NCBI GenBank assembly: GCA_964579145.1
Contig: CAZOGB010000012.1
Span: 1,866 to 65,865 of the forward strand
Direction: 5' to 3'
DNA length: 64,000 nt
DNA from: an uncultured bacterium
GTDB lineage: Bacteria > Armatimonadota > HRBIN16
Position numbers and translations under genes: made by a program. Of the stretch, positions 14,610 through 47,552 are shown piece after piece. Positions within the stretch are counted from its first letter, which is position 1, and each line of letters opens with the position of its first letter. A model generated the notes under the pieces. The model was given only the letters and a program-made list of their open reading frames with translations, was not told where the DNA came from and made no database searches.

Positions 14610-14613
14610 CTCT

Positions 14614-16516: not shown

Positions 16517-17887
16517 ATGAAAGCCGCGCTGATCATAACCCTGCTGGTCATCAGCCTTGGCACCGGTTATGCCCTGGCACAACGACCTGCTCGCCTCCTG
16601 CCGAAATGGAAACAGGAGTTCCAGCGTGCCCGGCAGGTGTGGGATAAGGGAGAGGCGGAGCGCGCGTTGATGGTGCTGGAAAAGGCATTTGCTCTGGCGC
16701 CAGACGACACCGCGCGCGCCCAGATTGCCTTCCGCTATGCCGACTGGAGCCGCCAGCTGGGACAATACGACACGGCAAGGCGATGGTACAGCAGGTGCAT
16801 CACCCTGTCGCCGCCGGGTTCCGACCTGATCCGTCGCGCCCGGGAAGGTTTGCGCAGTCTGTCGTCTGCCCGCCCCGTGCCCGTCTATCCCGTGCCGCCC
16901 GCTACCACCGTGCCCCCATGGACATCCGCTCCCGTCGGCGAAGTTCGCATGTTTCCATCGCTGGCCGTGCTGTTTGCGGTGTCCCTGCTGGTGTTGCTGA
17001 TGCTCCTGCAGTGGGCAAGCGGCTGGAGGCGTGAGGCGTTCTTCGCGCAGGTGGTACTCAGCATATTGCTCGGCGGAGCGATTACCATGATGGTTCCCTT
17101 TGGCGTGATGCTGCTGAGCCAGCGGTTTTCGCCCCAGCCCGACGACTGGATAGCGGGAATACTGACCATCGGCAGTATCGTCTGTATGGCGTTCGCTGCG
17201 CGCACCTGGCAACAGGGACAGCTACTGCGTGCCACCCCCCTCACCCGCTTGAGAAGCGCATCGCACGGCTTTTTGAAAGTGCGCGGAGTGGCGGAAGCCG
17301 CATTCGGCGTGCTTACCAGCCAGGTCGGCAACATCTCTGGGATTTACCTGAGCGAGCTTTCCGAGCGTTACGTGCGCCGTACCGAAACCTACTATGACTC
17401 GCAGAGCAAACGCTGGAAGACGCGCACGGTTTACCGATGGGAGACCATCTACAGCTTCACACAGGGCGTAAACTTCCTGCTGGACGACGGCACGGGCAAA
17501 GCCATCGTGGAAGTGGAAGGGGCGGAGTTCTACCCCGAACATGTGGCGCTGTTTTACAACTATCGCCCGGTGCGCTCGTTTCGATGGTTTGCCAGTGTGG
17601 GTGATGTGCGCACCACAATACGATACATCCCGCCGAATGCGACGGTGACCGTTTGGGCGCGATACTATGAACGCGACCTGCCCGGCACCGAACGCGATGA
17701 GATGCGCCTGCAGTACGACCGCTTCCACAAATGCATGGTGGTGCTGGAGGGAAATGAGGGTAAGGTGTACACGACCCGCACGGGAGCAGGGCTTGCGCTG
17801 GCGGTGCTGGGGGTGGTGATGCTTCTGGGAGTGATTTTTATCCTGCTGAACCCGGGCGCCGTTTCGGGGTACATCAACACCTATTGA
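16517..17887 (+). CDS. Membrane protein with an N-terminal TPR-like exported domain and a C-terminal beta-rich GIDE-like domain (LemA-associated)
   Basis: Signal peptide or TM MKAALIITLLVISLGTGYALA, several internal TM helices, and a C-terminal TM. The C-terminal region RTETYYDSQSKRWKTRTVYRWETIY...RYYERD resembles bacterial GIDE-domain proteins that pair with LemA. ATG at 16517 is preceded by GAGGAAGG. Confidence 0.45.
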   Translation: MKAALIITLLVISLGTGYALAQRPARLLPKWKQEFQRARQVWDKGEAERALMVLEKAFALAPDDTARAQIAFRYADWSRQLGQYDTARRWYSRCITLSPPGSDLIRRAREGLRSLSSARPVPVYPVPPATTVPPWTSAPVGEVRMFPSLAVLFAVSLLVLLMLLQWASGWRREAFFAQVVLSILLGGAITMMVPFGVMLLSQRFSPQPDDWIAGILTIGSIVCMAFAARTWQQGQLLRATPLTRLRSASHGFLKVRGVAEAAFGVLTSQVGNISGIYLSELSERYVRRTETYYDSQSKRWKTRTVYRWETIYSFTQGVNFLLDDGTGKAIVEVEGAEFYPEHVALFYNYRPVRSFRWFASVGDVRTTIRYIPPNATVTVWARYYERDLPGTERDEMRLQYDRFHKCMVVLEGNEGKVYTTRTGAGLALAVLGVVMLLGVIFILLNPGAVSGYINTY

Positions 17888-17901
17888 GGAGGTTCAACAT
17901 C

Positions 17902-18465
17902 ATGACAGGCATCTCAACCTTAGCGATTGTGCTGTTCATCATCGGAGGCGTGCTGGTGATATGGGTCATCGCCGCCTACAACAACCTGGTGAACCTGCGC
18001 GGACAGGCTCAGCGGGCATGGGCAAACGTGGACGTAGTGCTCAAACAGCGCTGGGACCTGATCCCCAACCTCGTGGAGACGGTGAAAGGCTATGCCCAGC
18101 ATGAACGGCAGATGCTGGAGCGCATTGCTGAACTGCGTGCGGTGGCACTGGGCGCCAAAGACCGCAAAGAACGCATTCAGGCGGAACAGGAAGCCTCGCG
18201 TCTGCTGGGCAACATCATCGTGTGGGGCGAGAACTATCCCGAGCTGAAGGCGAACGAAAACTTCCTGCATCTCCAGCGCACGCTGGCGGACCTGGAGGAG
18301 CAAATCGCCGACCGCCGCGAGCTGTACAACGAAGCCGCCACGAACTACAACGTGTACCAGAAGACCTTCCCGGCGGTGCTGGTAGCGCAGAGCGTCTGGG
18401 CGGAAGAGATGCCCCTGTTTGAGGCGGCTCCCCAGGAGCGAGAGGTGCCGAAGGTACAGTTTTAG
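17902..18465 (+). CDS. lemA: LemA-family protein
   Basis: AYNNLVNLRGQAQRAWANVDVVLKQRWDLIPNLVETVKGYAQHE is a canonical LemA block, preceded by one N-terminal TM helix. ATG at 17902 has GAGGAGG 9 nt upstream. Confidence 0.85.
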   Translation: MTGISTLAIVLFIIGGVLVIWVIAAYNNLVNLRGQAQRAWANVDVVLKQRWDLIPNLVETVKGYAQHERQMLERIAELRAVALGAKDRKERIQAEQEASRLLGNIIVWGENYPELKANENFLHLQRTLADLEEQIADRRELYNEAATNYNVYQKTFPAVLVAQSVWAEEMPLFEAAPQEREVPKVQF

Positions 18466-24523: not shown

Positions 24524-26161
24524 ATGAGGCGACAACAGATTGGACAGATTCTGCTCGATCTGGGCTACATCACACGGGAACAGTTGGTCGATGCGGTAAT
24601 GGTGCAGAAAAACACCGGCAAACGCATCGGAGACATCCTCCTGCAGCTGGGATATCTGAACGGCGAGCAGCTGGCGGAGGCGCTGGCGATACAGGCTGGG
24701 GTGGAGTTCGTGCCCGTGAAGATTGAGCAGATACAGCCCGAGGCGCTGGCATTGCTGGACCCCACCGTCGCACGTGGACTGCAAGCCCTGCCCCTGTGGA
24801 TTCGCGACGGCAAGCTGTACATCGCGCTGGCAGACATTCACGACACGACCGCCCAGCGCGAACTCGCGCGGCTGGTCAACATGCCGATAGCGGTAGTTTC
24901 TGCGAGCACGGACGCCGTGCAGGCTGGTATCCGCTTCTATTATCCCAAAGATGCGGCTGACTGGCAAAGCGCGGCGCAGGAACCCTGCGTGTACGCCTTC
25001 TTACAGCGACTGTTTGAAATGGCAGGCGGTGACGACGCTCGCCCGTTGCAGATGGAACCGCATGACGCGCTGTACTATCGCGTTTGCCGGCGTACGGGTG
25101 GAGCGATGGATCTGATTGAGACCGTCTCGCGCCCCTTTGCGCGGGTCAGCATCTACGCGCTCAAACGCATGGCAGGTTTCCAGGAGAACGATAGCCCCTA
25201 CGTCTCTGCAACCATCCGCTTCGCGCGACCAGCGGAGGAAACGTCGGTTCGCGTCTCCTGCCTCCAGACCGTTCAGGGCGAGCGGGTTGTGCTGAAGATA
25301 GCGAACAGGCAGATCCCTCAACTCCAGAATTATGAGGTCGTGCTGACTTCGGAAGGGGACAGGCTATTGCAGAAGTGGATACAGGCCCGGCAGGGGTTAA
25401 TTCTGATATCCAGCAACAGCTGGAAGCCGCGCAGTCAGTTCATCCTGCAGGCTATCGACTCGTATGCCCAGCAGGGTTACAGTACACTGGTGCTGACGCG
25501 CTCACCGCTCAACGCACCCGAAGGTGTGTTTGTGGTTCCGCTGGAGTATGAGTCCCCCGGCAGAGCTTTTCAGCAGGTGGTGGTTGCCCTCCAGCAGGAG
25601 CCGGATATTCTGGTGCTAGATGCGCCGGCGGGCTGGGAGCATCTGCAGTTGCTGGCATCCTCGAATAACGTCCACACCTTTATCCTGCTGTCCATACACG
25701 CAGAGAGCGCCGCGGATGCTCTTGCGCAGGTGGCATCCCAGCAAGTGGCACCGGTGCTCTTCGCCGAGGTACTCCGGGGCGTGGTGCATCTCTACAACCT
25801 GCCGCGCCTGTGTGCGCATTGCAAGACCGCCCGCCCCGTCGAAGGTGAAATCGTGGAACGGCTGGGTGTGTCTTCCGAAACGGTATACGATGCCGCCGGC
25901 TGTGCTCAATGTCGGTTCACAGGACATGCTGGAGTAACGACTGTCGCCCAGGTACTGCCGGCGGAACAGCCCCTGCTGGAGGCTCTGCGCCATGGCAGGA
26001 TCTCCGAAGCGGTGCAGGTGCTCAGGCAATCGGGCGAGGCTGTCTTGAGGGAAGCTCTGCGGCAGGCGGTGATGCAGGGGGCAACCTCTGTGGAGTACGC
26101 TGTGGAGACCCTCTCCGCCTCGCAGGGTTCAGACCTGCGCACGTACCTCCGGGCAGCGTGA
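24524..26161 (+). CDS. GspE/PilB-like protein with tandem MshEN c-di-GMP-binding motifs and a degenerate Walker A (probable pseudo-ATPase)
   Basis: Two MshEN-type repeats, IGQILLDLGYITREQLVDAVMVQ and IGDILLQLGYLNGEQLAEALAIQ. The GspE Walker A position reads SNSWKPRSQ instead of GPTGSGKST. The C-terminal tetracysteine CAHC...CAQC typical of GspE is retained. Confidence 0.6.
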   Translation: MRRQQIGQILLDLGYITREQLVDAVMVQKNTGKRIGDILLQLGYLNGEQLAEALAIQAGVEFVPVKIEQIQPEALALLDPTVARGLQALPLWIRDGKLYIALADIHDTTAQRELARLVNMPIAVVSASTDAVQAGIRFYYPKDAADWQSAAQEPCVYAFLQRLFEMAGGDDARPLQMEPHDALYYRVCRRTGGAMDLIETVSRPFARVSIYALKRMAGFQENDSPYVSATIRFARPAEETSVRVSCLQTVQGERVVLKIANRQIPQLQNYEVVLTSEGDRLLQKWIQARQGLILISSNSWKPRSQFILQAIDSYAQQGYSTLVLTRSPLNAPEGVFVVPLEYESPGRAFQQVVVALQQEPDILVLDAPAGWEHLQLLASSNNVHTFILLSIHAESAADALAQVASQQVAPVLFAEVLRGVVHLYNLPRLCAHCKTARPVEGEIVERLGVSSETVYDAAGCAQCRFTGHAGVTTVAQVLPAEQPLLEALRHGRISEAVQVLRQSGEAVLREALRQAVMQGATSVEYAVETLSASQGSDLRTYLRAA

Positions 26162-26450: not shown

Positions 26451-27389
26451 ATGAACCGGCGAGAGATGTTTCAATGGTTGGGACTGGCAGGGATGGCGGT
26501 GGTTGCCGGTTGCTCCGGGCGAGGGGCAAGGCAGTCGAAAACGACGCAGAAACCGCTGGATACCGCCAGAGCGGAACACCTGAAGAAGGTGCAGAACATT
26601 GTGGCGATTGCTTCGCAGGGCAGTGTGCGTGAGATGGTGGAGCGCGCTCTGCGCCCGTTGGGTGGCATTGAGAAGTTCGTGCGCCCGGGCGATACCGTGG
26701 TGCTGAAGCCCAACGCCGCGTGGCTCAGAACCCCCGAGCAGGCTGCCAACACCAACCCCGAAGTGGTGGCTGCGGTAATTGACCTGTGCCAGAAAGCCGG
26801 AGCGAAACGCATCCTGATTGTCGAACACACCTGCGATAATCCCGCAACCGTCTGCTTCGAGATGAGCGGTATTCGAAAGGTAGCCGACGCGGCAGGGGCG
26901 GTTATCGTCAACGCCAACGCGGAAGGGATGTATCGCCCCGTCAGCATTCCGGGAGCAAAGGTGCTTGCGCAGACGCAGGTGGTGCGCGACGTGCTGGAGG
27001 CGGACTGCTTTATCAACCTGCCTGTCGCCAAAGACCACAGCGCCACACGGGTCACGCTGGGCTTGAAGAACCTGATGGGCGTGGTGTGGGACCGTCAGGC
27101 GTGGCACGTGCAGGGCGTGCATCAGTGCATCGGGGACTTCGTGCTGGCGGTAAAGCCGCACCTGACCATCATTGATGCCACACGCATTCTGGCAACGAAG
27201 GGTCCCAAAGGTCCGGGTGAGGTCAAACACCTCAACCAGATTATCGCTGGAGTAGACCCGGTGGCAGCCGATGCGTTTGCCACCACCCTGTTCGGTTTGA
27301 TGCCAGACGACATCGGTTACATCATGCATGCTCACAGGCTGGGGGTGGGCGAAGCCCGTCTGAACAGGCTGAACATCACGAGGGTATAG
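26451..27389 (+). CDS. DUF362-family protein, exported lipoprotein with a Tat-like signal
   Basis: N-terminus MNRREMFQWLGLAGMAVVAGCSG has a Tat-like RR motif plus a VAGC lipobox. VLKPN and KDHS blocks are shared with the paralog at 29013. ATG at 26451 is preceded by GGAGGAGG. Confidence 0.55.
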   Translation: MNRREMFQWLGLAGMAVVAGCSGRGARQSKTTQKPLDTARAEHLKKVQNIVAIASQGSVREMVERALRPLGGIEKFVRPGDTVVLKPNAAWLRTPEQAANTNPEVVAAVIDLCQKAGAKRILIVEHTCDNPATVCFEMSGIRKVADAAGAVIVNANAEGMYRPVSIPGAKVLAQTQVVRDVLEADCFINLPVAKDHSATRVTLGLKNLMGVVWDRQAWHVQGVHQCIGDFVLAVKPHLTIIDATRILATKGPKGPGEVKHLNQIIAGVDPVAADAFATTLFGLMPDDIGYIMHAHRLGVGEARLNRLNITRV

Positions 27390-27392
27390 CCG

Positions 27393-29006
27393 ATGAGCAC
27401 CGTAACAGAAGCACGCCGGCGATTCAAGGCAGCAGGGCGGGTGCGTGTGCGTTTCTGGCGGATGCAGAACGTCCGGCGCATCGTGCAGGTGGCGTTCCTT
27501 CTGCTGTTTCTGTTCCTGCTGGCGTTGACGGTATATCCCCTGCGCTCACCGGTGCCAGTGGACTTCTTCTTCCGCGCCGACCCCTTAGCGGTGCTCAGCA
27601 CCTTCATCGCCTCGCGTGAGGTTATCGCTTCGCTGGTGCCCCTGGCGGCAGTGGTGCTCGCGCTGACGGTGGTGCTGGGCAGGTTCTTTTGCGGCTGGTT
27701 CTGCCCGATGGGCACGCTAATCGACCTGTCCGACCGCTTTCTGGTGCGGCGCAACCGTCGCGTAGCGGGCGCAAAGGGCTTCCCGCAGGTGAAGTACTAC
27801 ATCCTAGCGATGGTGCTGGTCTCTGCCCTGCTTTCCGCGCAAATCGCCTACTTCTTCGACCCGTTCGGCATCCTCACGCGCACGATGGTGTGGGTGCTGG
27901 TTGCGCCCGTGACTCTGCTGGGGAGGGTTATCACGGGTTCGCCATGGGTGGCGGACTGGGCGCCGTCCCTCGCGCAGATACCCTTTATCCCCGAGGTCCA
28001 GCCGCATTACCGCATGAACCTGCTGGCGGCTCTGCTGTTCGCGGGCATTCTTGCGCTGGGGCTGGTCAGTCGGCGGTTCTGGTGCAGGAACCTGTGTCCG
28101 CTGGGCGCACTGCTTGCGCTGTTTTCGGGCTGGGGCATCGTGCGGCGGCAAACGAACGCGGAACAGTGTATCGAGTGCCACCGTTGCGACCGCGAATGCA
28201 AGATGGGCGCCATCCTGCCCGACAGCCATCGCTATCTGGCGCGTGAGTGCATCTATTGCTATAACTGCGTGTCGGTGTGCGCGCCCGGCGCAACGTCCTT
28301 CCCCGTCACCCTGCGCAGGGAGGGCTTCGAGACCGCCACCGACCTCAATCGTCGCCGAATACTGGGGTTCGCCGGGCTGGGTGTGCTGTGGGCAGGTATT
28401 TCGGTAGGCGACATTGGGGCGAAGAAGGTGGGCAACTCACCTATCAAGGCATCCAGTCCCTTCCGTATCCGACCGCCCGGCAGCCTGCCTGAAGAACAGT
28501 TCCTGCAAAAGTGCGTGCGGTGCAGCCTGTGCATGAAGGTGTGCCCGACCAACAGCTTACAGCCCGCGCTGACCGAGGCGGGCATTGAAGGGTTCTGGAC
28601 GCCCATTCTGGTTCCGCGCATCGGGCACTGCAGTCAGCACTGCACCGCCTGTGGGGATGTTTGTCCTACCGACGCCATTCAGCCTTTCACCCCGCAGGAG
28701 AAGAAGTATCTTTTCATCGGGCGGGCGTATATAGATAGAAGCATGTGTATCGTGTGGGCGCAGGATAAAAAGTGCCTCGTGTGCGATGAGCACTGTTCGT
28801 ATCGCGCCCTGCACTGGAAGGTGGTGGATGGACTGCGCCGCCCGTTCGTGAACGAATATCTGTGCACCGGCTGTGGCGAGTGCGAAGCCAAATGCCCGGT
28901 GCAACCGATAGCGGCGATTCGCGTAACCACTCTGGGCGACCTGCGCCATCTGACGCGCGAAGCGCAAAAGCGATTCTACGAGCGACATCTGGAAAAGGAG
29001 GAATAA
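27393..29006 (+). CDS. Membrane-bound polyferredoxin (NapH/MauN-like protein with 4Fe-4S binding domains)
   Basis: RFFCGWFCPMGT and FWCRNLCPLGALL NapH-type membrane motifs. At least three CxxCxxCxxxCP ferredoxin motifs in the C-terminal half. Confidence 0.75.
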   Translation: MSTVTEARRRFKAAGRVRVRFWRMQNVRRIVQVAFLLLFLFLLALTVYPLRSPVPVDFFFRADPLAVLSTFIASREVIASLVPLAAVVLALTVVLGRFFCGWFCPMGTLIDLSDRFLVRRNRRVAGAKGFPQVKYYILAMVLVSALLSAQIAYFFDPFGILTRTMVWVLVAPVTLLGRVITGSPWVADWAPSLAQIPFIPEVQPHYRMNLLAALLFAGILALGLVSRRFWCRNLCPLGALLALFSGWGIVRRQTNAEQCIECHRCDRECKMGAILPDSHRYLARECIYCYNCVSVCAPGATSFPVTLRREGFETATDLNRRRILGFAGLGVLWAGISVGDIGAKKVGNSPIKASSPFRIRPPGSLPEEQFLQKCVRCSLCMKVCPTNSLQPALTEAGIEGFWTPILVPRIGHCSQHCTACGDVCPTDAIQPFTPQEKKYLFIGRAYIDRSMCIVWAQDKKCLVCDEHCSYRALHWKVVDGLRRPFVNEYLCTGCGECEAKCPVQPIAAIRVTTLGDLRHLTREAQKRFYERHLEKEE

Positions 29007-29012
29007 GCGCCC

Positions 29013-29996
29013 ATGCCATCCAGAAGAGAGTTCCTGAAGGACCTGATGAGAACAGGAGCGGGTCTGTACACTCCCGCCGCCGTGTTCGCCGTGCTGCTGC
29101 AGGAGAAGAAGAACCCCCAGAGCACCGTCGTTGAGGTCAAAAACCCGAATGCACAGAGCGAGAGCCACCGTCTTCGCGCAGACGTTGTGCAGGCGATGGT
29201 CTTCGAGGCGGTGCGACGCCTGAGTGGGGAAAAGAACGACCGCTCTGCCTGGACGCACTATTTCACTCCTGAAGATGTGGTTGGCATCAAGGTCAACTGT
29301 CTGTTTGGGCGAGGAGCCTCTACCCACCCCGAAGTGGTGATGGCGATTGTGGAGGGGCTGAAACTGGCAGGGGTCAAGCCGGAGAACATCATCATCTGGG
29401 ACCGCAGTGACGGCGACTTAGCCAAAGCGGGCTTTACGCTCAACCGCGAGGGACCGGGCGTGAAGTGCTATGGCACCAACGGCGACTACGACCCCACCCC
29501 CACCCGTCACGGCTCGTTCAACGGCAGATTGAGCAAAATCCTGAGCGAGCGCATCACCGCACTGATAAACGCACCGATTCTGAAAGACCACAGCATCGCT
29601 GGCATCACCAACGCCTGCAAGAACCATTACGGCTCCATCGATAACCCGGGCGCCCATCACGGTAATAACTGCGACCCCTACCTGGCAGACCTCAACGCCG
29701 TGCCTGCCATCCGCCAGAAGACGCGCTTGATTATCTGCGATGCCATCCGCCCGATTTGCGAAGGCGGACCCGGCTTGCGAGGCGATTACGCCTGGGATTA
29801 CAACGCCATCCTCGCCTCCACCGATCCCATAGCGATAGATACGGTCGGCTGGCAGATTGTCGAGGCAAGGCGTAAGGAGATGGGGTTGCCGCCGCTGGCG
29901 CAGGTGGGGAGACCTGTTCGCTATCTGCAAACTGCTGCGCAATTGGGCGTGGGTACCAACGACCCGAACCGAATCCGTCTGGTGCGGGTGGGATAG
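29013..29996 (+). CDS. DUF362-family protein with a canonical Tat signal (SRREFLK)
   Basis: MPSRREFLKDLMRTGAGLYTPAAVFAV is a twin-arginine signal. Paralogous to the gene at 26451 (IKVN and KDHS blocks). Confidence 0.55.
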   Translation: MPSRREFLKDLMRTGAGLYTPAAVFAVLLQEKKNPQSTVVEVKNPNAQSESHRLRADVVQAMVFEAVRRLSGEKNDRSAWTHYFTPEDVVGIKVNCLFGRGASTHPEVVMAIVEGLKLAGVKPENIIIWDRSDGDLAKAGFTLNREGPGVKCYGTNGDYDPTPTRHGSFNGRLSKILSERITALINAPILKDHSIAGITNACKNHYGSIDNPGAHHGNNCDPYLADLNAVPAIRQKTRLIICDAIRPICEGGPGLRGDYAWDYNAILASTDPIAIDTVGWQIVEARRKEMGLPPLAQVGRPVRYLQTAAQLGVGTNDPNRIRLVRVG

Positions 29997-30005
29997 AATG
30001 CGATA

Positions 30006-30027
30006 GGGGCACACCGGGGTGTGCCCC
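30006..30027. terminator. Perfect 10-bp GC hairpin between convergent genes; a possible bidirectional terminator
   Basis: ggggcacacc-gg-ggtgtgcccc. No U-tract, so intrinsic-terminator activity is uncertain. Confidence 0.4.
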
Positions 30028-30032
30028 CGCTC

Positions 30033-30539
30033 TTACAGCGCTCTCTGCACGGTCTCTTCCAGAACCTGCATGGTGTTTTGCGGGTCATAGCCTTCCAGTC
30101 GCGCCAGAATGTTGCCCTCTTTGTCGATGATGAACAGCGTGGGAAGGCTTTTAACATGGAAGGCTCCCTTTGCGGTGGCATCGCTGTCGGCGGCGATGGG
30201 GTAATTCACACCCATCTCTTTCACGAAAGCCTCTATCTCTGCCTTGCTGGTCACATCCACCGCCACCCCGATAACCTCTACGCCTTTATTCCGGTGGCGG
30301 TTGTGGAACTGTATCATCTTGGGCATGGTGAACCGGCAGGGCGCACACCACGTCGCCCAGAAGTCCAGCACCACCACCTTCCCTCTGTAGTCCTGCAGAG
30401 TTTTCGTTTCGCCGTTCAGCAGGTGAAGGGTGACATTGGGAGCGGTGTCTCCCTGCCCCATCGGTTTCGGAGGCTGGAACGCATAAATCACCAGCCCTGC
30501 TATCAGTACAATCAACACATAGACTATCGCCCTGCGCAT
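30033..30539 (-). CDS. TlpA/ResA-family membrane-anchored thiol-disulfide oxidoreductase
   Basis: N-terminal TM helix. Thioredoxin-fold active site WATWCAPC (CxxC). Confidence 0.85.
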   Translation of the reverse strand: MRRAIVYVLIVLIAGLVIYAFQPPKPMGQGDTAPNVTLHLLNGETKTLQDYRGKVVVLDFWATWCAPCRFTMPKMIQFHNRHRNKGVEVIGVAVDVTSKAEIEAFVKEMGVNYPIAADSDATAKGAFHVKSLPTLFIIDKEGNILARLEGYDPQNTMQVLEETVQRAL

Positions 30540-30597
30540 AGAACCACCTCTTGCCTGCGACTACTGCTTGTTGGACTCCGCCATCAGCCCTTCTGAT

Positions 30598-32907
30598 TCA
30601 TCGCACATAATCCGCCTCTTCGGGACGCCACACCGTATCGCGCACGGTCAGGTACAGCGTTCGCGCGGCGTCGGCGCGGGTAATCGGACCCTCCGGGAAG
30701 AAGCGCATTCCTTCTTCCTGCAGGGCATCTACACCATCCCACAGCATGGAGGTGATATGATGCCGGCGCAGGGTCTCTATCGCAGCAGCGTGCGGCGAGT
30801 CGGCTGGCACGTCCAAGTAAGGCAACTGACCGGGCGTTACCGGCGTCCACTGTCCCAGTCTTACCATCACGTTCGTCAGCCACTGCGCGAACAGTGCGCG
30901 CGATATGGGCATGTCGGGGCGGAACAGCGTCTCTTCCGGCTTCAGGATGCCCGCTGCTACCAGCCCCTCCACTGCCTGTCGGGCGGGATGCTCTTCGGGC
31001 AGGTCGGTGTAAGGCAGAGCGGGCTTCGCATAGCTGGTTTTCCATCCGCCCTGCTTCAGCCGATGCCACAGCCACTGCGCCGCGTCGGCGCGAGTGAGCA
31101 TCTTCTCTGGCTCAAATCGCTCCTGCGGGAAGTATCCACGTGCCGCCAAATACTGAATAGCCCGAAAACCGCGTGTTTCGGCGGTGACATCAGGAAACCA
31201 GTACAGGTACACGCCGTATCTCAGCAGCACCTCCTGTACCAGGCGGGAAGGGATGCGTCTGGGTTCCGTGTCGTAGCGCAACGCCAGCGCCGCCGCTGCG
31301 CCCGCCGCCTGCCCCATATTCATACGCACCGGCTCCATGCGAAGGGTTCCATACGCCACATGGGTGGCGGAGACCGCCGTGGATACCAGCACATTGCGCA
31401 GGCGCAGCGGGAGCAGGCTACCGTACGGAACCTGGTACCAGGGCGTGTAATTCACCAGCCAGAACTCGCCCTCGCCCATGTCGGGCGAATCCCAGTCGGT
31501 TTTGGGCTGGACGGCGTGCGAGTCCATCGGGTAGTCGCCGATGCTGATGGAATCTGGACGCAGGCGTTCTCGCGCCTTCCATACGTCGCTTTCGTTCATC
31601 AGCACGTGCCCCATAATGCGCCTCGCTTCGCGCACGTACAGCTGCGGCGGGATGTTGCCGTTATCGCGATACTCATCCTCCGCCAGCCCGATGTTTTTCA
31701 GCCCCAGCTCGGTCTGGATGTAGTAGAGATACCCCAGTGCGTGCCACTTGTAGCGTTCGGCAATCTCGTCGCGCCGCTTCCAGCTGGCGGTCGGATAGTC
31801 ATAATTGATACCGGGCAGATTACTGCCCTGCGGATGCTGGTTAATCTCAAACTTGCCACCGGGAATGCGACCGTACAGATAAGCCCACGTTTTCTCCCAG
31901 GGCGGAGTGTGGATGTAGTTCTCCTTATTGTAGAAAGGGGGTTGCGGGATGGTCTTGTCTGCATCCTTGCCGTAGTCCTTCACCGCCAGCAGGATAGCGT
32001 AAGAGGGGATACGCTTATCGCCCTTGCCGGTGCTCCCGGGCAGGATGCGGTCGTTGGCGCGGTCATAGTAGATATGTCCAGCGTGTGGCTCTTCAGGGGA
32101 ACGAGGTTCGCGCCCCACGCGGAAGGGAGCACCTCCCCACGCGGCGATGTCGCCCTCATGTGTGGCGTCAATGAAGATGTCGCCTTCAAAAACTGCCTTG
32201 CGCCCCGTCAGCATATTCTGCACAATCACCGCACGCACCCGGTCTCCATCTCGCATCACGCCAACGGGGCGCACGCGGAAGTAGACGTGGACGTTCGGAT
32301 GCTGAGCCACAATGCTCTTAATTAGCGCGTTTGCCACGCGCGGCTCGTATGCCATACCGTTGCCCGTGCCGTAATGTGCCTGCACCGCCCTGCGGAACTC
32401 TTCAAAAAGCCCGTTGGAGCGGGCGGGGTTGCGCATGTCGGTCAGGCTCACGCCGCTGCTGATCATGCCGCCCAGTCGATTGGTCTGCTCCAGCAGGGCG
32501 ACCGTCACACCCTCTCGCGCAGCGGTTACCGCCGCTCCCACTCCAGAAGCGGTGCCGCCCACCACCACCAGCGGATAGTGAATGCGCGCGGGCAGTTCTC
32601 GGAAGGTGCGTTCACTAACCTCTGCCGAGGGCTTCTGAGTGCCGTCCGCCATCTGCGCCACCACTCTGTAACGGTACGTCTGAGCAGGTTCCAGCGGCTG
32701 GTCTATATACTGGCGGGCATCGGCGGGCAGGGTGGCTATCGGCACACCATCGCGCTGTACCACATACGCCTGCACCTCTCCCTGGGCGGGTGGAAGCCAG
32801 TAAACGTTAATCTGCACCGGCGACTGTGCCAGTGCCTCCACGGCCGTCGGCTGAGCATGCACCGACCCGGCAAGAAGCACTAACAGAACGAACACGCCCC
32901 TCTTCAT
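30598..32907 (-). CDS. Secreted FAD-dependent oxidoreductase with C-terminal SLH-like cell-surface anchoring repeats
   Basis: Signal peptide MKRGVFVLLVLLAGSVHA. FAD Rossmann motif VVVGGTASGVGAAVTAAREG. Three C-terminal SLH-like repeats (LTRADAAQWLW, ISRALFAQWL, ITRADAARTLYL). Start at 32907 is preceded by AAGGGGGA. Confidence 0.6.
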   Translation of the reverse strand: MKRGVFVLLVLLAGSVHAQPTAVEALAQSPVQINVYWLPPAQGEVQAYVVQRDGVPIATLPADARQYIDQPLEPAQTYRYRVVAQMADGTQKPSAEVSERTFRELPARIHYPLVVVGGTASGVGAAVTAAREGVTVALLEQTNRLGGMISSGVSLTDMRNPARSNGLFEEFRRAVQAHYGTGNGMAYEPRVANALIKSIVAQHPNVHVYFRVRPVGVMRDGDRVRAVIVQNMLTGRKAVFEGDIFIDATHEGDIAAWGGAPFRVGREPRSPEEPHAGHIYYDRANDRILPGSTGKGDKRIPSYAILLAVKDYGKDADKTIPQPPFYNKENYIHTPPWEKTWAYLYGRIPGGKFEINQHPQGSNLPGINYDYPTASWKRRDEIAERYKWHALGYLYYIQTELGLKNIGLAEDEYRDNGNIPPQLYVREARRIMGHVLMNESDVWKARERLRPDSISIGDYPMDSHAVQPKTDWDSPDMGEGEFWLVNYTPWYQVPYGSLLPLRLRNVLVSTAVSATHVAYGTLRMEPVRMNMGQAAGAAAALALRYDTEPRRIPSRLVQEVLLRYGVYLYWFPDVTAETRGFRAIQYLAARGYFPQERFEPEKMLTRADAAQWLWHRLKQGGWKTSYAKPALPYTDLPEEHPARQAVEGLVAAGILKPEETLFRPDMPISRALFAQWLTNVMVRLGQWTPVTPGQLPYLDVPADSPHAAAIETLRRHHITSMLWDGVDALQEEGMRFFPEGPITRADAARTLYLTVRDTVWRPEEADYVR

Positions 32908-33069: not shown

Positions 33070-35748
<2,679 letters not shown>

Positions 35749-35825
35749 CCCGTCGCAGGACACTCGCCCTCCAGCACGAATCGTTGCCTATGAGCCAGTG
35801 GAAACTGCCGGCATGGAGGGAGCCG

Positions 35826-38366
35826 ATGAAGCGGATGGGAGCCTTACTGCTGGGGCTGTTTGCTTTGCAGGTCTATGCCCAGAAACAATCCCTGCAAACG
35901 TGGAACGCCGTTGAAGGCACATTTACCTGGGATGAACAGGTGAGGCGAAGCAGTGTCCAGAGCGTTCGCCTGCACAACCCCACCGCCGACCTTCGCAGCG
36001 GCGTGATGCACGTGGTGCAGCTGAACCAGACGAAGCCTGTTCCATTCCGCGTCACCGCATGGAGCCGGGCGGAGAATGTCTCAGGCAGTGCCGACTCAGG
36101 CTACTCCCTGTATCTCGACCTCTACTACACCGACGGCACGCCCGAATGGGGATTGATGGCTCCCTTCAGCACAGGCACGCATGACTGGGAACGCCGGGAG
36201 GTGCTGGTCATCCCTCGCAAACCGGTGGGCAAAGTATATGTGCACCTGCTGTTGCGTAATCACGCGGGCACAGTATGGTTCGACGATGTACAGATGGAGA
36301 TATTGGAGGGATTACAGGTGCTGGATATGCAGAGCACACGCCAGCCTGCCTTGCGTGCCGGCAAACCCGCGGTCAGCTGGGGCACTGCAGAGCGTCTGCA
36401 GGTGAAGTTCGACGATTCCGGGCTGGTCGCCGGGCTGGTATCTGGTGGTAAGTCGCTTCCCGGTGGGCGCCTGCCCGGAGGCTGGTTCCTGCGCGACATG
36501 AGGCAGCCGGATACGCTGGTGCCGTTCAGCGGGAAATGGACAAGCACCAGTCCACCCGTGTGGAGCGGTGAGGCGAACGGTGTGCAGATAGAGGTACGTT
36601 ACGGGCAGGCGGGCGACCTCCTTCAGGCGGAGGCAACTCTACGCACCCCTGAAGGTTCGCCGGACCGCGCGGTGAGCTTCATCTGGGCGATGCCGGTGCG
36701 GATGGATGGGGCAAGGTGGCACAACGATATTCGTGAATCCGCACCTGCTGGAGACGGCGAGCACGCACACCTGATACGCATCAACGGCGGCGCGACCAAT
36801 ATGATGAGCCTCTACCCGCTGGCGTGCCTGACAGGGGAAGGATGGGGTATTGCCTGGGGGTGGCGAATGGACGCGCCGCGGCTGACAAGGCTGTTTGCTA
36901 ACCCGCAGTGGGGCTGGGCGTGCGCCGCCTTTGATTGCGTTATCAGCGGGAAGACGCGCAAGTTTCCGCATCAGGCACGGTTTCATCTTCTGCTGTGGGA
37001 TGCAGACCCGCAATGGGGCTTTCGCTCCGCCCTGCAAAAGTATATTGATAACTTCCCCGACTGGTTCCGAAACCGCGTGCCCAAACAGGGTATCTGGATG
37101 CCCTTCACCGCCCCACACACCGTGCAGAACGTGCAGGACTTCGGCGTTGTTTTCCATGAGGGCGACAACAGCGTGGCAGAGGACGACCATCTGGGCATCC
37201 TGAGCTTCCGCTACACCGAGCCGATGAGCTACTGGATGCCCATGCCCAAAGAGTTTCCGCGAACGGATGCAGGAGTGGACGACTGCCTCCAGCAGTACGC
37301 ACAGGGCAAGATAGGCGACGCCTGGCAGAGGGCACAGGCGCGAGCGACGTTGAAATGCGGAATCATCACCGACGCCAGCGGCAAGATATACCGCTACATC
37401 ACCGTTGCCCCATGGAACGACGGCGCGATGTTCCTGCTGAACCCCGACCCCGACATCCCCTCCGACGCCGAGAACCCTTCTAAAGCGCACCTGAACTATC
37501 CTCCTGAACATGCCCAGCGCGCCTACGCGAAACCGGGTACGGAGGGACTGGACGGAGAATATCTGGACTCCTTAGAGATGGGCGGGGAGATGCTGAACTT
37601 CCGCGAGGAGCATTTCGCGACGGCGGATGTGCCGCTGGTTTTCGACTCCAGCAGTCTGCGCCCGGCTATCCTGCAGATATTCAGCACGTGGGAGTATACC
37701 CGCTACCTTGCCGACGACCTGCGCAGGCGAGGCAGATGGCTGTTTGCCAACGCGGTGGGCTGGCGGTTTCCCTTCCTGATGGCACAGCTGGACGTATCGG
37801 GCACGGAGACCAACTGGTGGCAGGGTGGTGCGTGGAAACCAGTATCACCTGCGCAGATGGACGTGTGGCGCAGTATGAGCTACCAGAAGCCGTACCTCCT
37901 GCTGATGAACACCGACTACGAAACCTTCGGCGGTCAGGTGGAGCGCTATTTCCAGCGGTGCCTGTTCTGGGGCATCTATCCCAGTATGTTCAGCCACAAC
38001 GCCGCCGATAACCCCTACTGGCGCAACCCGAACTGGTATAATCGCGACCGACCGCTGTTCCAGAAGTATATCCCGCTGATTCGGCGCGTTGCGGAGGCCG
38101 GCTGGCAACCCATCACCTGCGCCACCGCCACAGGAGGCTGGGTGGAGCGATACGGCAGGAACCTGTTCACCGTGTTCAACCCCGAAAACACCGAACGTGA
38201 GGTGCTGGTGCTTATCGACCTGAACGCGCTGAAGATACCCGCCCAGCAGGTGCAAAAGCCGGTGGAGCTGGTGCAGGGGCTGGCGTTGAACTGGAAAGCG
38301 GAGGCAGGAAAGCTGCAGATTACCCTGAAGCTGGCGACTGAAGGGACGGCGGTGATTACCTGGTAA
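35826..38366 (+). CDS. Large secreted hypothetical protein, possibly a carbohydrate-active enzyme with a CBM-like N-terminal domain
   Basis: Signal peptide MKRMGALLLGLFALQVYAQ, with ATG 35826 preceded by GGAGGGAG. About 847 aa. No catalytic motif recognised. Confidence 0.45.
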   Translation: MKRMGALLLGLFALQVYAQKQSLQTWNAVEGTFTWDEQVRRSSVQSVRLHNPTADLRSGVMHVVQLNQTKPVPFRVTAWSRAENVSGSADSGYSLYLDLYYTDGTPEWGLMAPFSTGTHDWERREVLVIPRKPVGKVYVHLLLRNHAGTVWFDDVQMEILEGLQVLDMQSTRQPALRAGKPAVSWGTAERLQVKFDDSGLVAGLVSGGKSLPGGRLPGGWFLRDMRQPDTLVPFSGKWTSTSPPVWSGEANGVQIEVRYGQAGDLLQAEATLRTPEGSPDRAVSFIWAMPVRMDGARWHNDIRESAPAGDGEHAHLIRINGGATNMMSLYPLACLTGEGWGIAWGWRMDAPRLTRLFANPQWGWACAAFDCVISGKTRKFPHQARFHLLLWDADPQWGFRSALQKYIDNFPDWFRNRVPKQGIWMPFTAPHTVQNVQDFGVVFHEGDNSVAEDDHLGILSFRYTEPMSYWMPMPKEFPRTDAGVDDCLQQYAQGKIGDAWQRAQARATLKCGIITDASGKIYRYITVAPWNDGAMFLLNPDPDIPSDAENPSKAHLNYPPEHAQRAYAKPGTEGLDGEYLDSLEMGGEMLNFREEHFATADVPLVFDSSSLRPAILQIFSTWEYTRYLADDLRRRGRWLFANAVGWRFPFLMAQLDVSGTETNWWQGGAWKPVSPAQMDVWRSMSYQKPYLLLMNTDYETFGGQVERYFQRCLFWGIYPSMFSHNAADNPYWRNPNWYNRDRPLFQKYIPLIRRVAEAGWQPITCATATGGWVERYGRNLFTVFNPENTEREVLVLIDLNALKIPAQQVQKPVELVQGLALNWKAEAGKLQITLKLATEGTAVITW

Positions 38367-41201: not shown

Positions 41202-41687
41202 TCAAGGACATCCCCATTTTCGCCGAAGTTTGCCAACCTCATCAGATGGAAAGCGTGCTCCACCTGCTAACATATCTGCAACGGCGTTACAGGCATCGTC
41301 TGTTGCCAGAATGTTGCTCTGGACGAATTGCTCCAACAGCCACAGCGTACCATGCACCGTCACCCGTTCAGCGGCAGCTGCCCGTCGCAGAGCAGCGTCG
41401 TCAGATAGTAGTATGTAGCCTCTTTCTCGCGCGAGGTACAGAGCTGACAGGTCGACGGCGTCCGCTCTAGGGTAAGTAATGCCCAGTGATTCAGTCTGCA
41501 TGACCTCTGTTCCAGTGAGCGAGACGATTTGCACCCCGTGCGATGCGAGGAAAGATAAGGGGATGGTGCGCAATTCTGCTATGACCAAATCTGTGGAGTA
41601 TAAAAGCCAGCCTGTCTGCACAAAGGTAGTTAACAGTCCAGCCTCATGCAAGTTGATCCAGACTGAGCTGTCCACGACGAAGACCAA
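41202..41687 (-). CDS. PIN-domain protein (putative ribonuclease, VapC-like)
   Basis: N-terminal VVDSSVWI acidic PIN motif and a later D residue block (LLSDDAAL). TTG start. Confidence 0.5.
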   Translation of the reverse strand: MVFVVDSSVWINLHEAGLLTTFVQTGWLLYSTDLVIAELRTIPLSFLASHGVQIVSLTGTEVMQTESLGITYPRADAVDLSALYLARERGYILLSDDAALRRAAAAERVTVHGTLWLLEQFVQSNILATDDACNAVADMLAGGARFPSDEVGKLRRKWGCP

Positions 41688-42753
41688 TTTCTAATCCCCC
41701 GTGAGTTTCGCGAACCCGGTGCTCGAACACGTCAAGAGGCTGTGCCAGCAGATACTCCGCCCGTCTCTGAGAGATTATCCCCTCTCCGTACAGACGGACA
41801 ACCATCCTATGAAATCGTTGAGGTTCTTCGGCTGGATAGGAATCGCCAGGTTCCTGAAGATGCCAGCCACGTTTGCGGAAGAGGCGAAACATCTCCTGTG
41901 CCGTGCTCTCGTGGATGATTTGTAGCTCGCACGCGCGTTTCACCCACGCAAGCATACTCAAGCCGAACTGGTGTTTGAGCAGGTGGAGCTCATAAAGGCT
42001 CAGGTGTTTGCGCGATAAGCCCAGCGCCTCGCGCGCGGTAGGTTCAGGAACAAGAAATGCAGCCGCAAAGCGATGCGCCATACGCTCTGCATCCAGTCCC
42101 TCTGGCACTTCACACAGTAGATGAAACAGCTCATGCGACAGGGTAAACCGCTGTCGGTCTCCCGGTAGTCCTTCCCTGACGGCAATAGCGGGCAAAAGGC
42201 AGCTCGCGCGATCATCGGCTCTTATCCAGAAGGCGGCGCCGTCGAAGTCACCAGCGTCCACCGGCACAACGCTTATCAAAACGCCTTTTTCCTCGAACAG
42301 GGCGATGAGGTTCGGGATGGCATCCATTCCAAGATCCCACACTTCGCGCAACTGGACGGCTGCCTGCTCCACTTCCTCGATAGTATGAATCCGCCGGGGG
42401 AAACCTCCCGGGAACTGCCAGATAAACGAGGAGCCGCTGATCTGTTGAACCTGCAGAACACGACCAGCCCAATCGCACAGGTACGCTTCTACCGATTGCT
42501 GGTGAGCACGAGACAAACCGCTTCGCTTGCGATAAGCAGGTCTCACCTCCTTGATGGATACGCCGCGCGTAAAGAAGAACTCCAGCGGTTTTTCGACCGC
42601 CAGAGCGATGCGAATCAGCACCTGTGAACCTGGCACGTCTTCGCCACGCTCGTAATTGGAGATAGCCTGTGCGCTGACCCCAACACGACGTGCCAGCTCC
42701 CGCATGCTCCATCCTTTCAGTTTCCGCGCGACTCGTATCCGCTCGCCTATCAT
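41644..42753 (-). CDS. XRE-family HTH domain fused to an ImmA/IrrE-type zinc metallopeptidase
   Basis: HTH block IRVARKLKGWSMRELARRVGVSAQAISNYERGE. HExxH motif SHELFHLL. Start ATG 42753 is preceded by GGGGAGG. Confidence 0.75.
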   Translation of the reverse strand: MIGERIRVARKLKGWSMRELARRVGVSAQAISNYERGEDVPGSQVLIRIALAVEKPLEFFFTRGVSIKEVRPAYRKRSGLSRAHQQSVEAYLCDWAGRVLQVQQISGSSFIWQFPGGFPRRIHTIEEVEQAAVQLREVWDLGMDAIPNLIALFEEKGVLISVVPVDAGDFDGAAFWIRADDRASCLLPAIAVREGLPGDRQRFTLSHELFHLLCEVPEGLDAERMAHRFAAAFLVPEPTAREALGLSRKHLSLYELHLLKHQFGLSMLAWVKRACELQIIHESTAQEMFRLFRKRGWHLQEPGDSYPAEEPQRFHRMVVRLYGEGIISQRRAEYLLAQPLDVFEHRVRETHGGLEIGLRRGQLSLDQLA

Positions 42754-42830
42754 CTCTGCCTCCCCACTTGACATTATGGCTAAGTACATGAGTTTTGTCA
42801 AGTGCATGTTGCTGAGGCTTCAGTTGGATA

Positions 42831-42950
42831 AGGCAACCCTGCAACTGGAAGTTGCGGGCTACCCAAAACAAAGCCTCCTGCGGAGGCTCCAACCTGCGTC
42901 AGCAGGTTTCGTTCGGTGTTGCCTGCGACTTCCAGCCGCAAGGACAGAAC
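42831..42950 (-). repeat. Dispersed structured intergenic repeat, copy C (full length, minus orientation)
   Basis: The reverse complement reads ccttgcggctggaagtcgcagg...agcctccgcaggaggct...gggtagcccgcaacttccagttgcagggttgcct. Hairpin 1 carries compensatory changes relative to copy A. Confidence 0.7.
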
Positions 42951-42985
42951 AAGCAGTGCCCGGTGAAGTCTTACCAGTGCCAGAG

Positions 42986-43921
42986 CTACTCGCCGGAGGT
43001 TGTGCGGTTGGAAGCGCGGGGATGGGCTTTGCGGTAAACCTCCTTCAGGCGTTCGCGGCTGACGTGCGTGTAGATTTGGGTGGTGGTGAGCTGGGCGTGT
43101 CCCAGGAGTTCCTGCACCGTGCGCAGGTCGGCGCCGCTGTCCAGCAGGTGCGTGGCGAAGGAGTGGCGCAGGGAGTGGGGCGATGGCTTGAAATCCCCGT
43201 TACCGGCGCCCGAATACCTGTCCACAATTCGGCGTACACTGCGGTCGGTCAGGCGAGTGCCCCGCCCGTTCAGAAACAGCCATCCTTCGTCGGGCGTTTT
43301 GCTCTTCGCCAGCAGGACGGGGCGTGCCCGTTGCAGGTACTCGCCCAGCGCCTCGTGTGCTGCCCTGCCGAAGAGTACCAGGCGCATCTTGTTCCCCTTG
43401 CCCATGACGCGGATGGTGTGCTGTGCAAAATCAACGTCCTGCAGGCGCAGATTCGTCAGCTCTCCCACGCGCATACCGGTCGCGTAGAGCAGTTCCAGCA
43501 CCGCACGGTCGCGTACCGAGAGTGGGTCGTCTCCAGCGGGCGCAGTGAGCAAACGCTCTACCTCACTCTGGCTCAGCACGCGAGGCAACTGCTGGTCATG
43601 TCGGGGTGTGCCGACCTCCTGCGCCGGGTTGTTCCCTATCACACCCTGTACCTGCAGGTATTTGAAAAAGGCACGCAGGGCAGCGATTTTGCGTTCGACG
43701 GTGCGTGATGACATCGCCAGCCGATGCAGTTCCGCCAGAAAGGCGCGAATGGTGGCGGGTTGGACATCCGCCCAGCCTGTCTGGGGAAAGTGCCCCTCCA
43801 GAAACTGTGCAAACTGCACGATGTCCAGGGCATAAGCACGCAGGGTATGCTCCGACGCGCGGCGGCGGTGCTGAAGGTCCAGCACGAAGGCGTCTATCCA
43901 CGCATATCGGTCGTCGCTCAT
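42986..43921 (-). CDS. xerC: Tyrosine recombinase XerC/XerD family
   Basis: C-terminal catalytic block HSLRHSFATHLLDSGADLRTVQELLGHAQLTTTQIYTHV. Start at 43921 gives a 311 aa protein, ATGA-coupled to trmFO. The track N-terminal extension is rejected. Confidence 0.85.
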   Translation of the reverse strand: MSDDRYAWIDAFVLDLQHRRRASEHTLRAYALDIVQFAQFLEGHFPQTGWADVQPATIRAFLAELHRLAMSSRTVERKIAALRAFFKYLQVQGVIGNNPAQEVGTPRHDQQLPRVLSQSEVERLLTAPAGDDPLSVRDRAVLELLYATGMRVGELTNLRLQDVDFAQHTIRVMGKGNKMRLVLFGRAAHEALGEYLQRARPVLLAKSKTPDEGWLFLNGRGTRLTDRSVRRIVDRYSGAGNGDFKPSPHSLRHSFATHLLDSGADLRTVQELLGHAQLTTTQIYTHVSRERLKEVYRKAHPRASNRTTSGE

Positions 43922-47546: not shown

Positions 47547-47552
47547 TACGCC

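Follow-up and report, generated by a model that had tools for sequence, protein, structure and literature searches.

Candidate Tat-exported, nickel-pincer nucleotide-dependent DUF362 proteins paired with a seven-cluster polyferredoxin in Armatimonadota and other phyla

The lactate racemase LarA binds its nickel-pincer nucleotide (NPN) cofactor through Arg75, Lys184 and His200, of which Lys184 is the covalent tether and His200 a nickel ligand, and its catalytic residues are Asp72, His108, His174 and Lys298 (PMC7583248). Users of NPN beyond LarA are actively sought, because hundreds of genomes make NPN but lack LarA (PMC13524815). DUF362 has been treated as an outgroup of LarA and belongs to the same Pfam clan, CL0471, as LarA_N (PMC11770544; for the clan also PMC7955657). 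Here we analyse a 64 kb stretch of DNA from an Armatimonadota genome (the window, whose closest homologues place it in this phylum too), in which the genes for two DUF362 proteins, DUF362-A and DUF362-B, flank the gene for a membrane polyferredoxin. On balance we favour the view that these DUF362 proteins are oxidoreductases exported via twin-arginine translocation (Tat), probably dependent on NPN, and wired to the membrane by the seven-cluster polyferredoxin.

NphT, an NPN-dependent hydride transferase of the aldo-keto-reductase fold, is an NPN enzyme other than LarA that was found through clustering with larB, larC and larE without LarA together with a conserved His/Lys motif (PMC13524815). 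The DUF362 domain has been found with iron-sulphur (Fe-S) domains, CBM9 and dockerins (PMC5742341), and in other DUF362 proteins a dicluster ferredoxin domain is nested inside DUF362 (PMC7955657; PMC5742341). The literature searched contained no functional study of DUF362, and no link between nickel-pincer cofactors and DUF362, Tat, NapH or polyferredoxins. For the polyferredoxin, the closest described protein is Q1NSB0 of the delta proteobacterium MLMS-1, for which Tooke et al. 2017 (eLife) described five helices and, as a prediction, seven [4Fe-4S] clusters, with three on the inside and four on the outside (PMC5449189). It is a NapH-NapG fusion, and reporter fusions showed that its fifth helix and C-terminal domain need Tat; the study concerned membrane insertion only and named no partner enzyme or function (PMC5449189). 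A module of comparable design is MsrPQ (YedYZ), with its fused form Sco3746, which is also small and self-contained, joins a membrane redox subunit to a Tat-exported cofactor enzyme, sits among housekeeping genes and comes in split and fused versions. It differs in its cofactors (haem b and molybdopterin) and belongs to unrelated protein families.

A conserved DUF362-polyferredoxin cassette

Five open reading frames (ORFs) between 26451 and 32907 were confirmed, and three of them make up the cassette. DUF362-A (26451-27389, + strand, 312 amino acids) matches Pfam PF04015 with E 9e-52 and 176.5 bits, against a gathering cut-off of 24. It is followed by the polyferredoxin (27393-29006, + strand, 537 amino acids; Fer4_5 and several Fer4 families) and by DUF362-B (29013-29996, + strand, 327 amino acids; PF04015, E 8.5e-24, 85.1 bits against the same cut-off of 24), which is 27% identical to DUF362-A. 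The intergenic gaps are 3 and 6 bp, and a gap of 290 bp with one weak promoter-like site lies upstream of DUF362-A. The three genes form an operon.

Homologous loci (L numbers below) were collected in two ways. A genome set of 79 loci was fetched from species-representative genomes with the polyferredoxin alone (counts are given over 80 loci), and a metagenome set of 80 loci was fetched with a DUF362 alignment that had DUF362-B as its first sequence; all loci together number 162, of which 82 are genome-derived and 80 metagenomic. A DUF362-A-type gene stood directly beside the polyferredoxin gene, on the same strand, in 75 of the 80 polyferredoxin-anchored loci, a pairing far beyond chance. The polyferredoxin has more than 4000 homologues. 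Loci with the pairing are labelled Armatimonadota, Thermodesulfobacteriota (Syntrophaceae and Desulfobulbales, including cultured Desulfopila), Aminicenantes, Nitrospirota, Clostridia/Eubacteriales metagenome-assembled genomes and Pirellulales, so that at least six phyla are represented. The metagenome loci (n = 80) held an A-type gene in 76 cases, a B-type gene in 48 and the polyferredoxin in 61, the remainder being mostly short contigs. B-type genes occur alongside the A-type and polyferredoxin genes in L001-L010, in those 48 metagenome loci, and in L082 and L083, two more distant Armatimonadota-like genomes that carry the same A / polyferredoxin / B triple.

Outside the closest relatives of the window, the flanking genes are lineage-specific housekeeping genes (amidase, UvrB, RecD2, GroEL, PurL), and a search among the flanks across lineages for further conserved module genes found none. 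The five polyferredoxin loci without DUF362 held no convincing other partner, their neighbours being an NAD epimerase, an LPG-synthase-like membrane protein, PspC and similar genes. The conserved unit is DUF362-A with the polyferredoxin, joined in several lineages by DUF362-B. Separately, in loci labelled Aminicenantes or Clostridia (L033, L037, L044, L046-L052, L054, L062, L063, L068 and L076) an AmiC-type N-acetylmuramoyl-L-alanine amidase gene (AMIN and Amidase_3) lay directly upstream of DUF362-A on the same strand. This adjacency may point to a role in the cell envelope, or may be mere synteny.

The polyferredoxin begins with a strongly basic N-terminus followed by hydrophobic helices, and its 28 Cys residues comprise two CX3CP motifs, each placed just after a helix as judged from hydropathy and motifs, and six four-Cys [4Fe-4S] motifs. 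A NapH/MauN-like NCBIfam match covers residues 22-178 (E 1.6e-28, 99.7 bits against a curated cut-off of 234), and includes the sequence FFCGWFCPMGT at residues 98-108. Residues 349-512 have NapG-like (E 2.5e-19, 69.5 bits against a cut-off of 269) and NapF-like (E 3.9e-16, below cut-off) matches. The NapH-like part (27456-28292, + strand) contains membrane helices, the two CX3CP motifs at C100 and C231, and two putatively cytoplasmic four-Cys motifs of ferredoxin type at C259-C269 and C286-C296 (CxxCxxCxxxC). After it, at 28344-28430 (+ strand), comes an internal twin-arginine motif, LNRRRILGF, then a fifth helix that is only weakly hydrophobic (Kyte-Doolittle mean 1.71, versus 2.2-2.8 for helices 1, 2 and 4), and then KK. 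This segment (LNRRRILGFAGLGVLWAGISVGDIGAKK), with its twin-arginine motif, helix and positive charges, is a predicted Tat-dependent insertion signal. The remaining domain (28437-28928, + strand) is NapG/NapF-like and predicted to be extracytoplasmic; it carries an RPPGSL..EEQF motif and 16 Cys in four four-Cys motifs. The internal arrangement of twin arginine (RR), helix and RPPG is kept in polyferredoxin homologues of all lineages.

From these features the polyferredoxin can be read as a NapH-NapG fusion with about five membrane helices and motifs for seven [4Fe-4S] clusters, four of which the internal RR motif and weak fifth helix are predicted to put outside the membrane. We infer that it is a transmembrane chain of Fe-S clusters. 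Compared by described features only, it resembles Q1NSB0 in architecture: both have a NapH-like part with cytoplasmic clusters, RR before helix five, positive charges, and an outer, NapG-like domain of four clusters. It also recalls the NapGH and NosGH systems, in which a Tat-exported enzyme of the periplasm is fed through NapH, a membrane protein with CX3CP motifs, and NapG, a periplasmic protein of four clusters. It differs from them in that the two modules are fused in one polypeptide, in that its scores lie far below the family cut-offs, and in that it is paired with DUF362 where they serve a molybdo- or copper enzyme. No nap gene (napA, napB, napC or napD) was present among the annotated genes of the window or the conserved neighbours. 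In a search for a solved relative only generic ferredoxin domains matched, and no structure covers the membrane part.

The original prediction for this locus, an extracytoplasmic redox module in which two paralogous DUF362 proteins with Tat signals flank a membrane polyferredoxin, agrees with the ORFs, the Pfam matches, the identity between the paralogs, the RR motifs and the pairing in 75 of 80 loci, which also recurs in most metagenome loci. FFCGWFCPMGT and several 4Fe-4S motifs had likewise been recognised in the polyferredoxin. Its description as NapH-like holds for residues 22-178 and was incomplete, the protein being a NapH-NapG fusion with an internal RR motif.

Export signals, fold and cofactor residues of the DUF362 proteins

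Tat signals were taken here to be twin-arginine motifs read from sequence. The signal peptide of DUF362-A (26451-26519, + strand) combines the twin-arginine motif NRREMFQ with a hydrophobic stretch and the lipobox VAGC (MNRREMFQWLGLAGMAVVAGC). DUF362-B starts MPSRREFLK, so that its signal region (29013-29102, + strand) holds the canonical SRREFLK, and a stretch of moderate hydrophobicity comes next. For DUF362-A, 104 of 120 homologues and nearly all orthologues across phyla have an RR motif, which is kept in B-type orthologues too. Some Armatimonadota A-type proteins (L002 at 6990-7994; P0135, P0139, P0163, P0172, P0192 and P0217) show RH, RT, QR or RDR at this site, or a plain Sec-type lipoprotein signal (MKEIAAAAIGAAVLLAGC), and the B-type partner of the same locus keeps RR.

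The AlphaFold2 model of DUF362-A, built with 76 homologues, had a predicted local distance difference test score of 92.9, and that of DUF362-B a score of 81.9. When the two models were compared with the PDB by Foldseek, LarA-family NPN enzymes were the sole matches at E<=1e-3 for both (probability 1.00, E 1e-6 to 1e-4). TM-scores were only 0.4-0.5, owing to the larger size and two-domain build of LarA. The best PDB matches of DUF362-B were the single-histidine LarA homologues 9q3k and 9q3j (E 2e-6). By these models, both DUF362 proteins have the LarA fold. Searches of the PDB by sequence, with DUF362-A or the family profile, returned no relative, only spurious matches to TAL-effectors and short-chain dehydrogenases/reductases. 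The Pfam models Lar_N and LarA_C matched neither DUF362-A nor DUF362-B, for which PF04015 alone was reported.

A residue register between the two families was usable only when taken from a LarA N-domain profile with greedy hhalign, and from Pfam's own DUF362 model. The reference LarA was the L. plantarum sequence, identical to 5HUQ chain A; the LarA comparison set comprised 107 diverse LarA homologues, and residue conservation was counted over 155 DUF362 sequences of all lineages and both paralogs. In the greedy setting, hhalign aligned the DUF362 profile (155 sequences) to the LarA N-domain profile over 224 collinear columns, and paired R93 of DUF362-A with R75 of LarA, D129 with H108, H196 with H174, K206 with K184 and H219 with H200. 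From EAD to His and on to Lys, the two proteins show the same spacing (LarA EADLLISEGFIESH174FFAGFSGGRK184SVLPG...H200, DUF362-A EADCFINLPVAKDH196SATRVTLGLK206NLMG...H219).

The Pfam model gave the same register. Scored against PF04015, genuine LarA reaches 26 bits (gathering threshold 24; E 1e-5), with residues 82-245 falling on profile positions 18-171. E162, H174, K184 and H200 of LarA then map to positions 98, 110-111, 120-121 and 136-137, and E183, H196 and K206 of DUF362-A to 98, 111 and 121, with H193 of DUF362-B also at 111. This mapping agrees with hhalign, and the register therefore holds on an independent profile. The LarA proteins above the PF04015 gathering threshold (26 versus 24 bits) include those of Loigolactobacillus (P0245-P0247; L081 10001-11275), which are bona fide lactate racemases. 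Since genuine LarA passes this threshold, the two Pfam families overlap at the sequence level.

By hhalign and the PF04015 mapping, the putative active-site segment of DUF362-A (26997-27107, + strand) reads EAD..KDH196..LGLK206N..WH219, which corresponds to EAD..H174..K184..H200 in LarA. That of DUF362-B (29550-29660, + strand) reads KDH193..ACK203N..HH216, and is invariant across A- and B-type sequences in the alignment. Conservation was very high, with K194, K206 and H219 present in 155 of 155 DUF362 sequences, H196 in 154 and R93 in 147. The position of LarA H108 is Asp or Asn in DUF362, and Gly in DUF362-B; D72 had no equivalent in the DUF362-LarA alignment, and the K298 region (LarA_C) is absent from DUF362. 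As far as these alignments indicate, DUF362 keeps equivalents of the NPN-binding Arg75, Lys184 and His200 and of the catalytic His174. A further candidate site, an Fe-S cluster bound by DUF362 itself, was rejected: the recurrent Cys113 and Cys226 are not invariant over the 155 sequences, which speaks against DUF362 having such a site.

DUF362 thus resembles LarA in fold, in clan (CL0471), in these four residues and in the clustering of some relatives with larB, larC and larE, and differs from it in giving no Lar_N or LarA_C match, in having Asp/Asn in place of His108 and in lacking a LarA-type C-terminal domain. In addition, LarA is cytoplasmic and redox-neutral, whereas DUF362 has Tat signals and is paired with a transmembrane polyferredoxin. 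The cytoplasmic DUF362 proteins in which a 2x[4Fe-4S] ferredoxin is nested (for example R5WQE2) belong to the same Pfam family and are also tied to Fe-S carriers. In these the Fe-S domain is part of the same cytoplasmic polypeptide, whereas in the window the clusters are on a separate transmembrane protein and the enzyme has an export signal.

In the original prediction, one DUF362 protein had a canonical SRREFLK Tat signal and the other RR with a lipobox, and the two were the likely terminal redox enzymes. Both signals can be read from the sequence, and RR is conserved in A- and B-type orthologues apart from about eight A-type homologues. Our analysis agrees that the DUF362 proteins are the likely catalytic parts. 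On each of the three points that had been named as able to refute the prediction, the result was in its favour: DUF362 and the polyferredoxin co-occur almost universally, twin-arginine motifs are conserved, and the check for a cofactor site on structure models, which had been proposed at that time, gave a LarA fold with conserved equivalents of the LarA cofactor residues.

Link to NPN synthesis and competing explanations

With LarB, LarC and LarE queries taken from the Loigolactobacillus lar operon (L081), lar genes were found directly beside the cassette, on the same strand, in six related metagenome loci and in three gene orders. The order larE-larC-larB-polyferredoxin-(small gene)-DUF362-B-DUF362-A is seen in L098, L101 and L123, while L100 has part of it, with larB at the contig edge; L089 has larC-larE-polyferredoxin-x-B-A, and L159 has A-polyferredoxin-larC. 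Scores exceeded the NCBIfam equivalog cut-offs for LarE (316 against 150 bits), LarC (199 and 140 against 90 and 50) and LarB (291 against 175). None of the six loci contains a DUF2088 LarA, and what flanks the clusters is unrelated, namely genes for BipA, an ECF sigma factor, a glycosyltransferase and an asparaginase. Compared with one another, the DUF362 proteins from the six loci show 50-81% identity, and compared with those of the window, 37-42%. They retain the Tat motifs and the Lys, His and His residues, and the accompanying polyferredoxins retain 28-30 Cys as well as the internal RR motif.

Two further observations concern the fetched loci. Within the lar-linked loci, the small ORF of 137-192 amino acids between the polyferredoxin and DUF362-B (L098 9459-9956, L123 6440-6898, L089 4873-5451, L100 3945-4358) encodes a lipoprotein-like DUF6599 protein in L098, has no Pfam match in L123, and has no counterpart in the window. 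Among all fetched loci, L082 alone carries a DUF2088 LarA homologue (Lar_N; 16998-18245, - strand), 6 kb from its A / polyferredoxin / B cassette, in a contig of 5.2 Mb, and the L082 organism therefore very probably makes NPN.

NphT offers the nearest parallel to this line of evidence, as it too is a non-racemase NPN user that was nominated by the same two kinds of evidence, gene clustering and conserved residues. It differs in its TIM-barrel fold, its cytoplasmic location, its lack of an Fe-S partner and in that its NPN binding was shown by experiment (PMC13524815). The polyferredoxin of the present cassette belongs to an architectural class already described; its DUF362 partner, the LarA-type cofactor site of that partner and the link to lar genes appear to be new.

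We propose a mechanism in which helices one to four of the polyferredoxin would be inserted by Sec and its folded four-cluster domain translocated by Tat, and this dual insertion would produce a membrane-spanning chain of about seven clusters. LarB, LarE and LarC would make NPN, or a close derivative, for the DUF362 proteins, which would receive it in the cytoplasm, be exported folded via Tat, and dock on the outer face of the polyferredoxin. There, the two electrons of the NPN hydride would be exchanged between DUF362 and the Fe-S chain, where LarA instead returns the hydride to its substrate, and DUF362 would act as an overt oxidoreductase on a periplasmic substrate, rather than as a racemase. 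The loss of the second catalytic histidine (His108 to Asp/Asn) fits one-sided hydride chemistry, and not racemisation. The inner end of the chain might meet the quinone pool, as in NapGH, or a cytoplasmic donor or acceptor.

Several points weigh against this proposal. At the sequence level the alignment is weak: the DUF362-LarA hhalign E value is only 0.087, HMMER with our own DUF362 or LarA family profiles found no link between the families, hhalign yielded non-significant or spurious alignments when run with default settings or against one LarA sequence, and the equivalence of R93 with R75 comes from hhalign alone. Neither LarA His108 nor the substrate-binding C-terminal domain is conserved in DUF362. 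No larB, larC or larE gene was found in the 64 kb window or in the 82 genome-derived loci, and the lar linkage occurs in only 6 of the 162 loci. About eight Armatimonadota A-type homologues have Sec-type lipoprotein signals, or RT, QR or RH in place of RR, and such signals are hard to square with an obligatory loading of the A-type protein with cofactor in the cytoplasm. As the NapH and NapG scores fall far below the NCBIfam cut-offs, quinol coupling is only an analogy. To our knowledge, no NPN enzyme exchanges electrons with Fe-S clusters, and we know of no precedent for one-electron transfer coupled to a hydride carrier without flavin.

Many of the same points suit an explanation in which the redox module is real and DUF362 is without NPN, its Lys, His, His and Asp residues binding another ligand, such as a metal ion or another nucleotide-like cofactor, and the lar genes of the linked loci serving another enzyme or a lineage-specific variant. 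The absence of lar genes from the window and from 156 of the 162 loci would then be expected, the Sec-type signals of some A-type orthologues would suit a metal loaded outside the cell, and neither the missing His108 and C-terminal domain nor the lack of known NPN enzymes with Fe-S partners would need explaining. However, each of the three NPN-binding residues is matched by a conserved residue of DUF362, with the order, and very nearly the spacing, of LarA and on a homologous fold. Moreover, DUF362 proteins are the sole plausible NPN users in the lar-linked clusters, given the absence of a DUF2088 LarA and the unrelated flanks, and the linkage recurs in three gene orders among proteins that are 50-81% identical. 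We therefore regard this explanation as unlikely, while giving it real weight.

If the DUF362 proteins do use NPN, they could instead be redox-neutral periplasmic isomerases (racemases or epimerases), with a polyferredoxin that takes no part in turnover and only provides low-potential electrons, by which the oxidation-sensitive nickel-thiolate cofactor outside the cell is activated or kept reduced. The conserved fold and NPN residues fit this, the characterised LarA-family enzymes are all racemases or epimerases (PMC7583248, PMC11770544), and NPN holo-enzymes have been described as labile (PMC11796402). But LarA-type racemisation needs two catalytic histidines, and DUF362 keeps the equivalent of His174 only. 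A seven-cluster polyferredoxin that is adjacent in 75 of 80 loci looks like a stoichiometric electron partner and not a repair device, and the ferredoxin domains nested in other DUF362 proteins likewise look like electron-transfer partners. We consider an isomerase role improbable.

The original prediction went further than the cassette, and placed two more genes in one five-gene extracytoplasmic electron-transfer system. The first (30033-30539, - strand), convergent to DUF362-B, encodes a TlpA/ResA-like protein with an N-terminal membrane anchor, a WCAPC motif and matches to AhpC-TSA/Redoxin (E ~1e-29) and Thioredoxin_8, which scored 126.7 bits against the ResA model, below the cut-off of 170. 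The second (30598-32907, - strand), upstream of the first, encodes a protein with a flavin adenine dinucleotide (FAD)-dependent oxidoreductase domain (PF12831 FAD_oxidored, E 2.7e-94), fn3 and SLH. Its signal is of the Sec type, not the Tat type (MKRGVFVLLVLLAGSVHA|Q), an oddity in a protein that should take up FAD before it is exported. Its C-terminal 170 residues show three SLH-like repeats, of which only one passes Pfam on its own. The convergent orientation of the TlpA-like gene and a secreted FAD protein with SLH were correctly foreseen.

In favour of a five-gene system, the genes are adjacent in the window and its closest relatives (L001, L003, L009), each of their products is predicted to lie outside the cytoplasm or to be anchored in the membrane, and L083 has a distant PF12831 paralog 3 kb from the cassette. 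However, the TlpA-like and FAD genes are on the opposite strand, and accompany the cassette only in L001-L009, whose polyferredoxins are 84-95% identical, without recurring in other lineages. Even there, the FAD gene lies 2.6 kb from the TlpA gene in L004 and is absent beside it in L006, and the Sec-type signal is unusual for a protein that would fold around FAD before export. The TlpA-like protein and the SLH-FAD protein are neighbours and not parts of the module, and we hold a five-gene system to be very improbable.

Finally, we give next to no credence to the polyferredoxin being an ordinary NapGH/NosGH quinol dehydrogenase for a nitrate or nitrous-oxide reductase encoded elsewhere, with DUF362 as an accessory, since its best named NCBIfam matches are indeed NapH, NapG and NapF but reach only 99.7 of 234 bits (NapH) and 69.5 of 269 bits (NapG), no nap or nos gene was found in the window or the examined loci, and its one constant neighbour is DUF362.

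Other genes of the window and implications

Nickel use by the organism is indicated by an Mvh/Hdr-like cluster elsewhere in the window (51836-58344, - strand), which encodes the large (51836-53362) and small (53376-54398) subunits of a NiFe-hydrogenase, an HdrA-like flavoprotein with ferredoxin domains (54873-56873), an HdrB-like CCG protein (56866-57774) and an HdrC-like dicluster protein (57775-58344). Genes of sugar metabolism lie at 1432-16344 and 46065-48827, and encode a UxaE tagaturonate epimerase, a GDSL esterase, a D-2-hydroxyacid dehydrogenase, a DUF4838 protein, an FGGY kinase, parts of an ABC transporter, a GFO/IDH/MocA oxidoreductase and a RhaA rhamnose isomerase. Known substrates of the LarA family are 2-hydroxy acids and sugar acids.

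Directly upstream of the cassette, a gene at 24524-26161 (+ strand) encodes a homologue of T2SSE/MshEN-type secretion ATPases, with a weak and partial match (E 5.8e-23, profile positions 82-366). Two large ORFs had no Pfam match at the thresholds used: one of 860 amino acids (35784-38366, + strand), which has a signal-like N-terminus and comes directly after a hybrid PAS/GAF histidine kinase (33070-35748), and one of 559 amino acids (62152-63831, - strand). At 41644-44377 (- strand) a regulator of the helix-turn-helix/IrrE type with an M78 peptidase adjoins a tyrosine recombinase of the phage integrase family, and this region may be the remnant or the edge of a mobile element.

We see about an even chance that DUF362 forms a second large branch of NPN enzymes, and the first with Tat export and a connection to an Fe-S electron-transport chain. 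DUF362 is in any case a concrete and testable candidate for an NPN user, with the LarA fold in its models, the equivalents of the cofactor-binding Arg, Lys and His, and, in some lineages, clustering with larE-larC-larB without LarA. If the reading of the DUF362 proteins as exported NPN-dependent oxidoreductases is true, the hydride chemistry hidden within the LarA reaction would become, in DUF362, overt redox chemistry of a respiratory type on an extracytoplasmic substrate, and NPN chemistry would extend from redox-neutral isomerisation in the cytoplasm to electron-transport-coupled catalysis outside the cell. It would explain part of the larB/larC/larE-positive genomes without LarA, and would tell which cofactor is used by a widespread domain of unknown function. 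The polyferredoxins inserted by both Sec and Tat, so far known as a curiosity of membrane insertion, would gain a function, and a module of two to three genes in at least six phyla would be defined.

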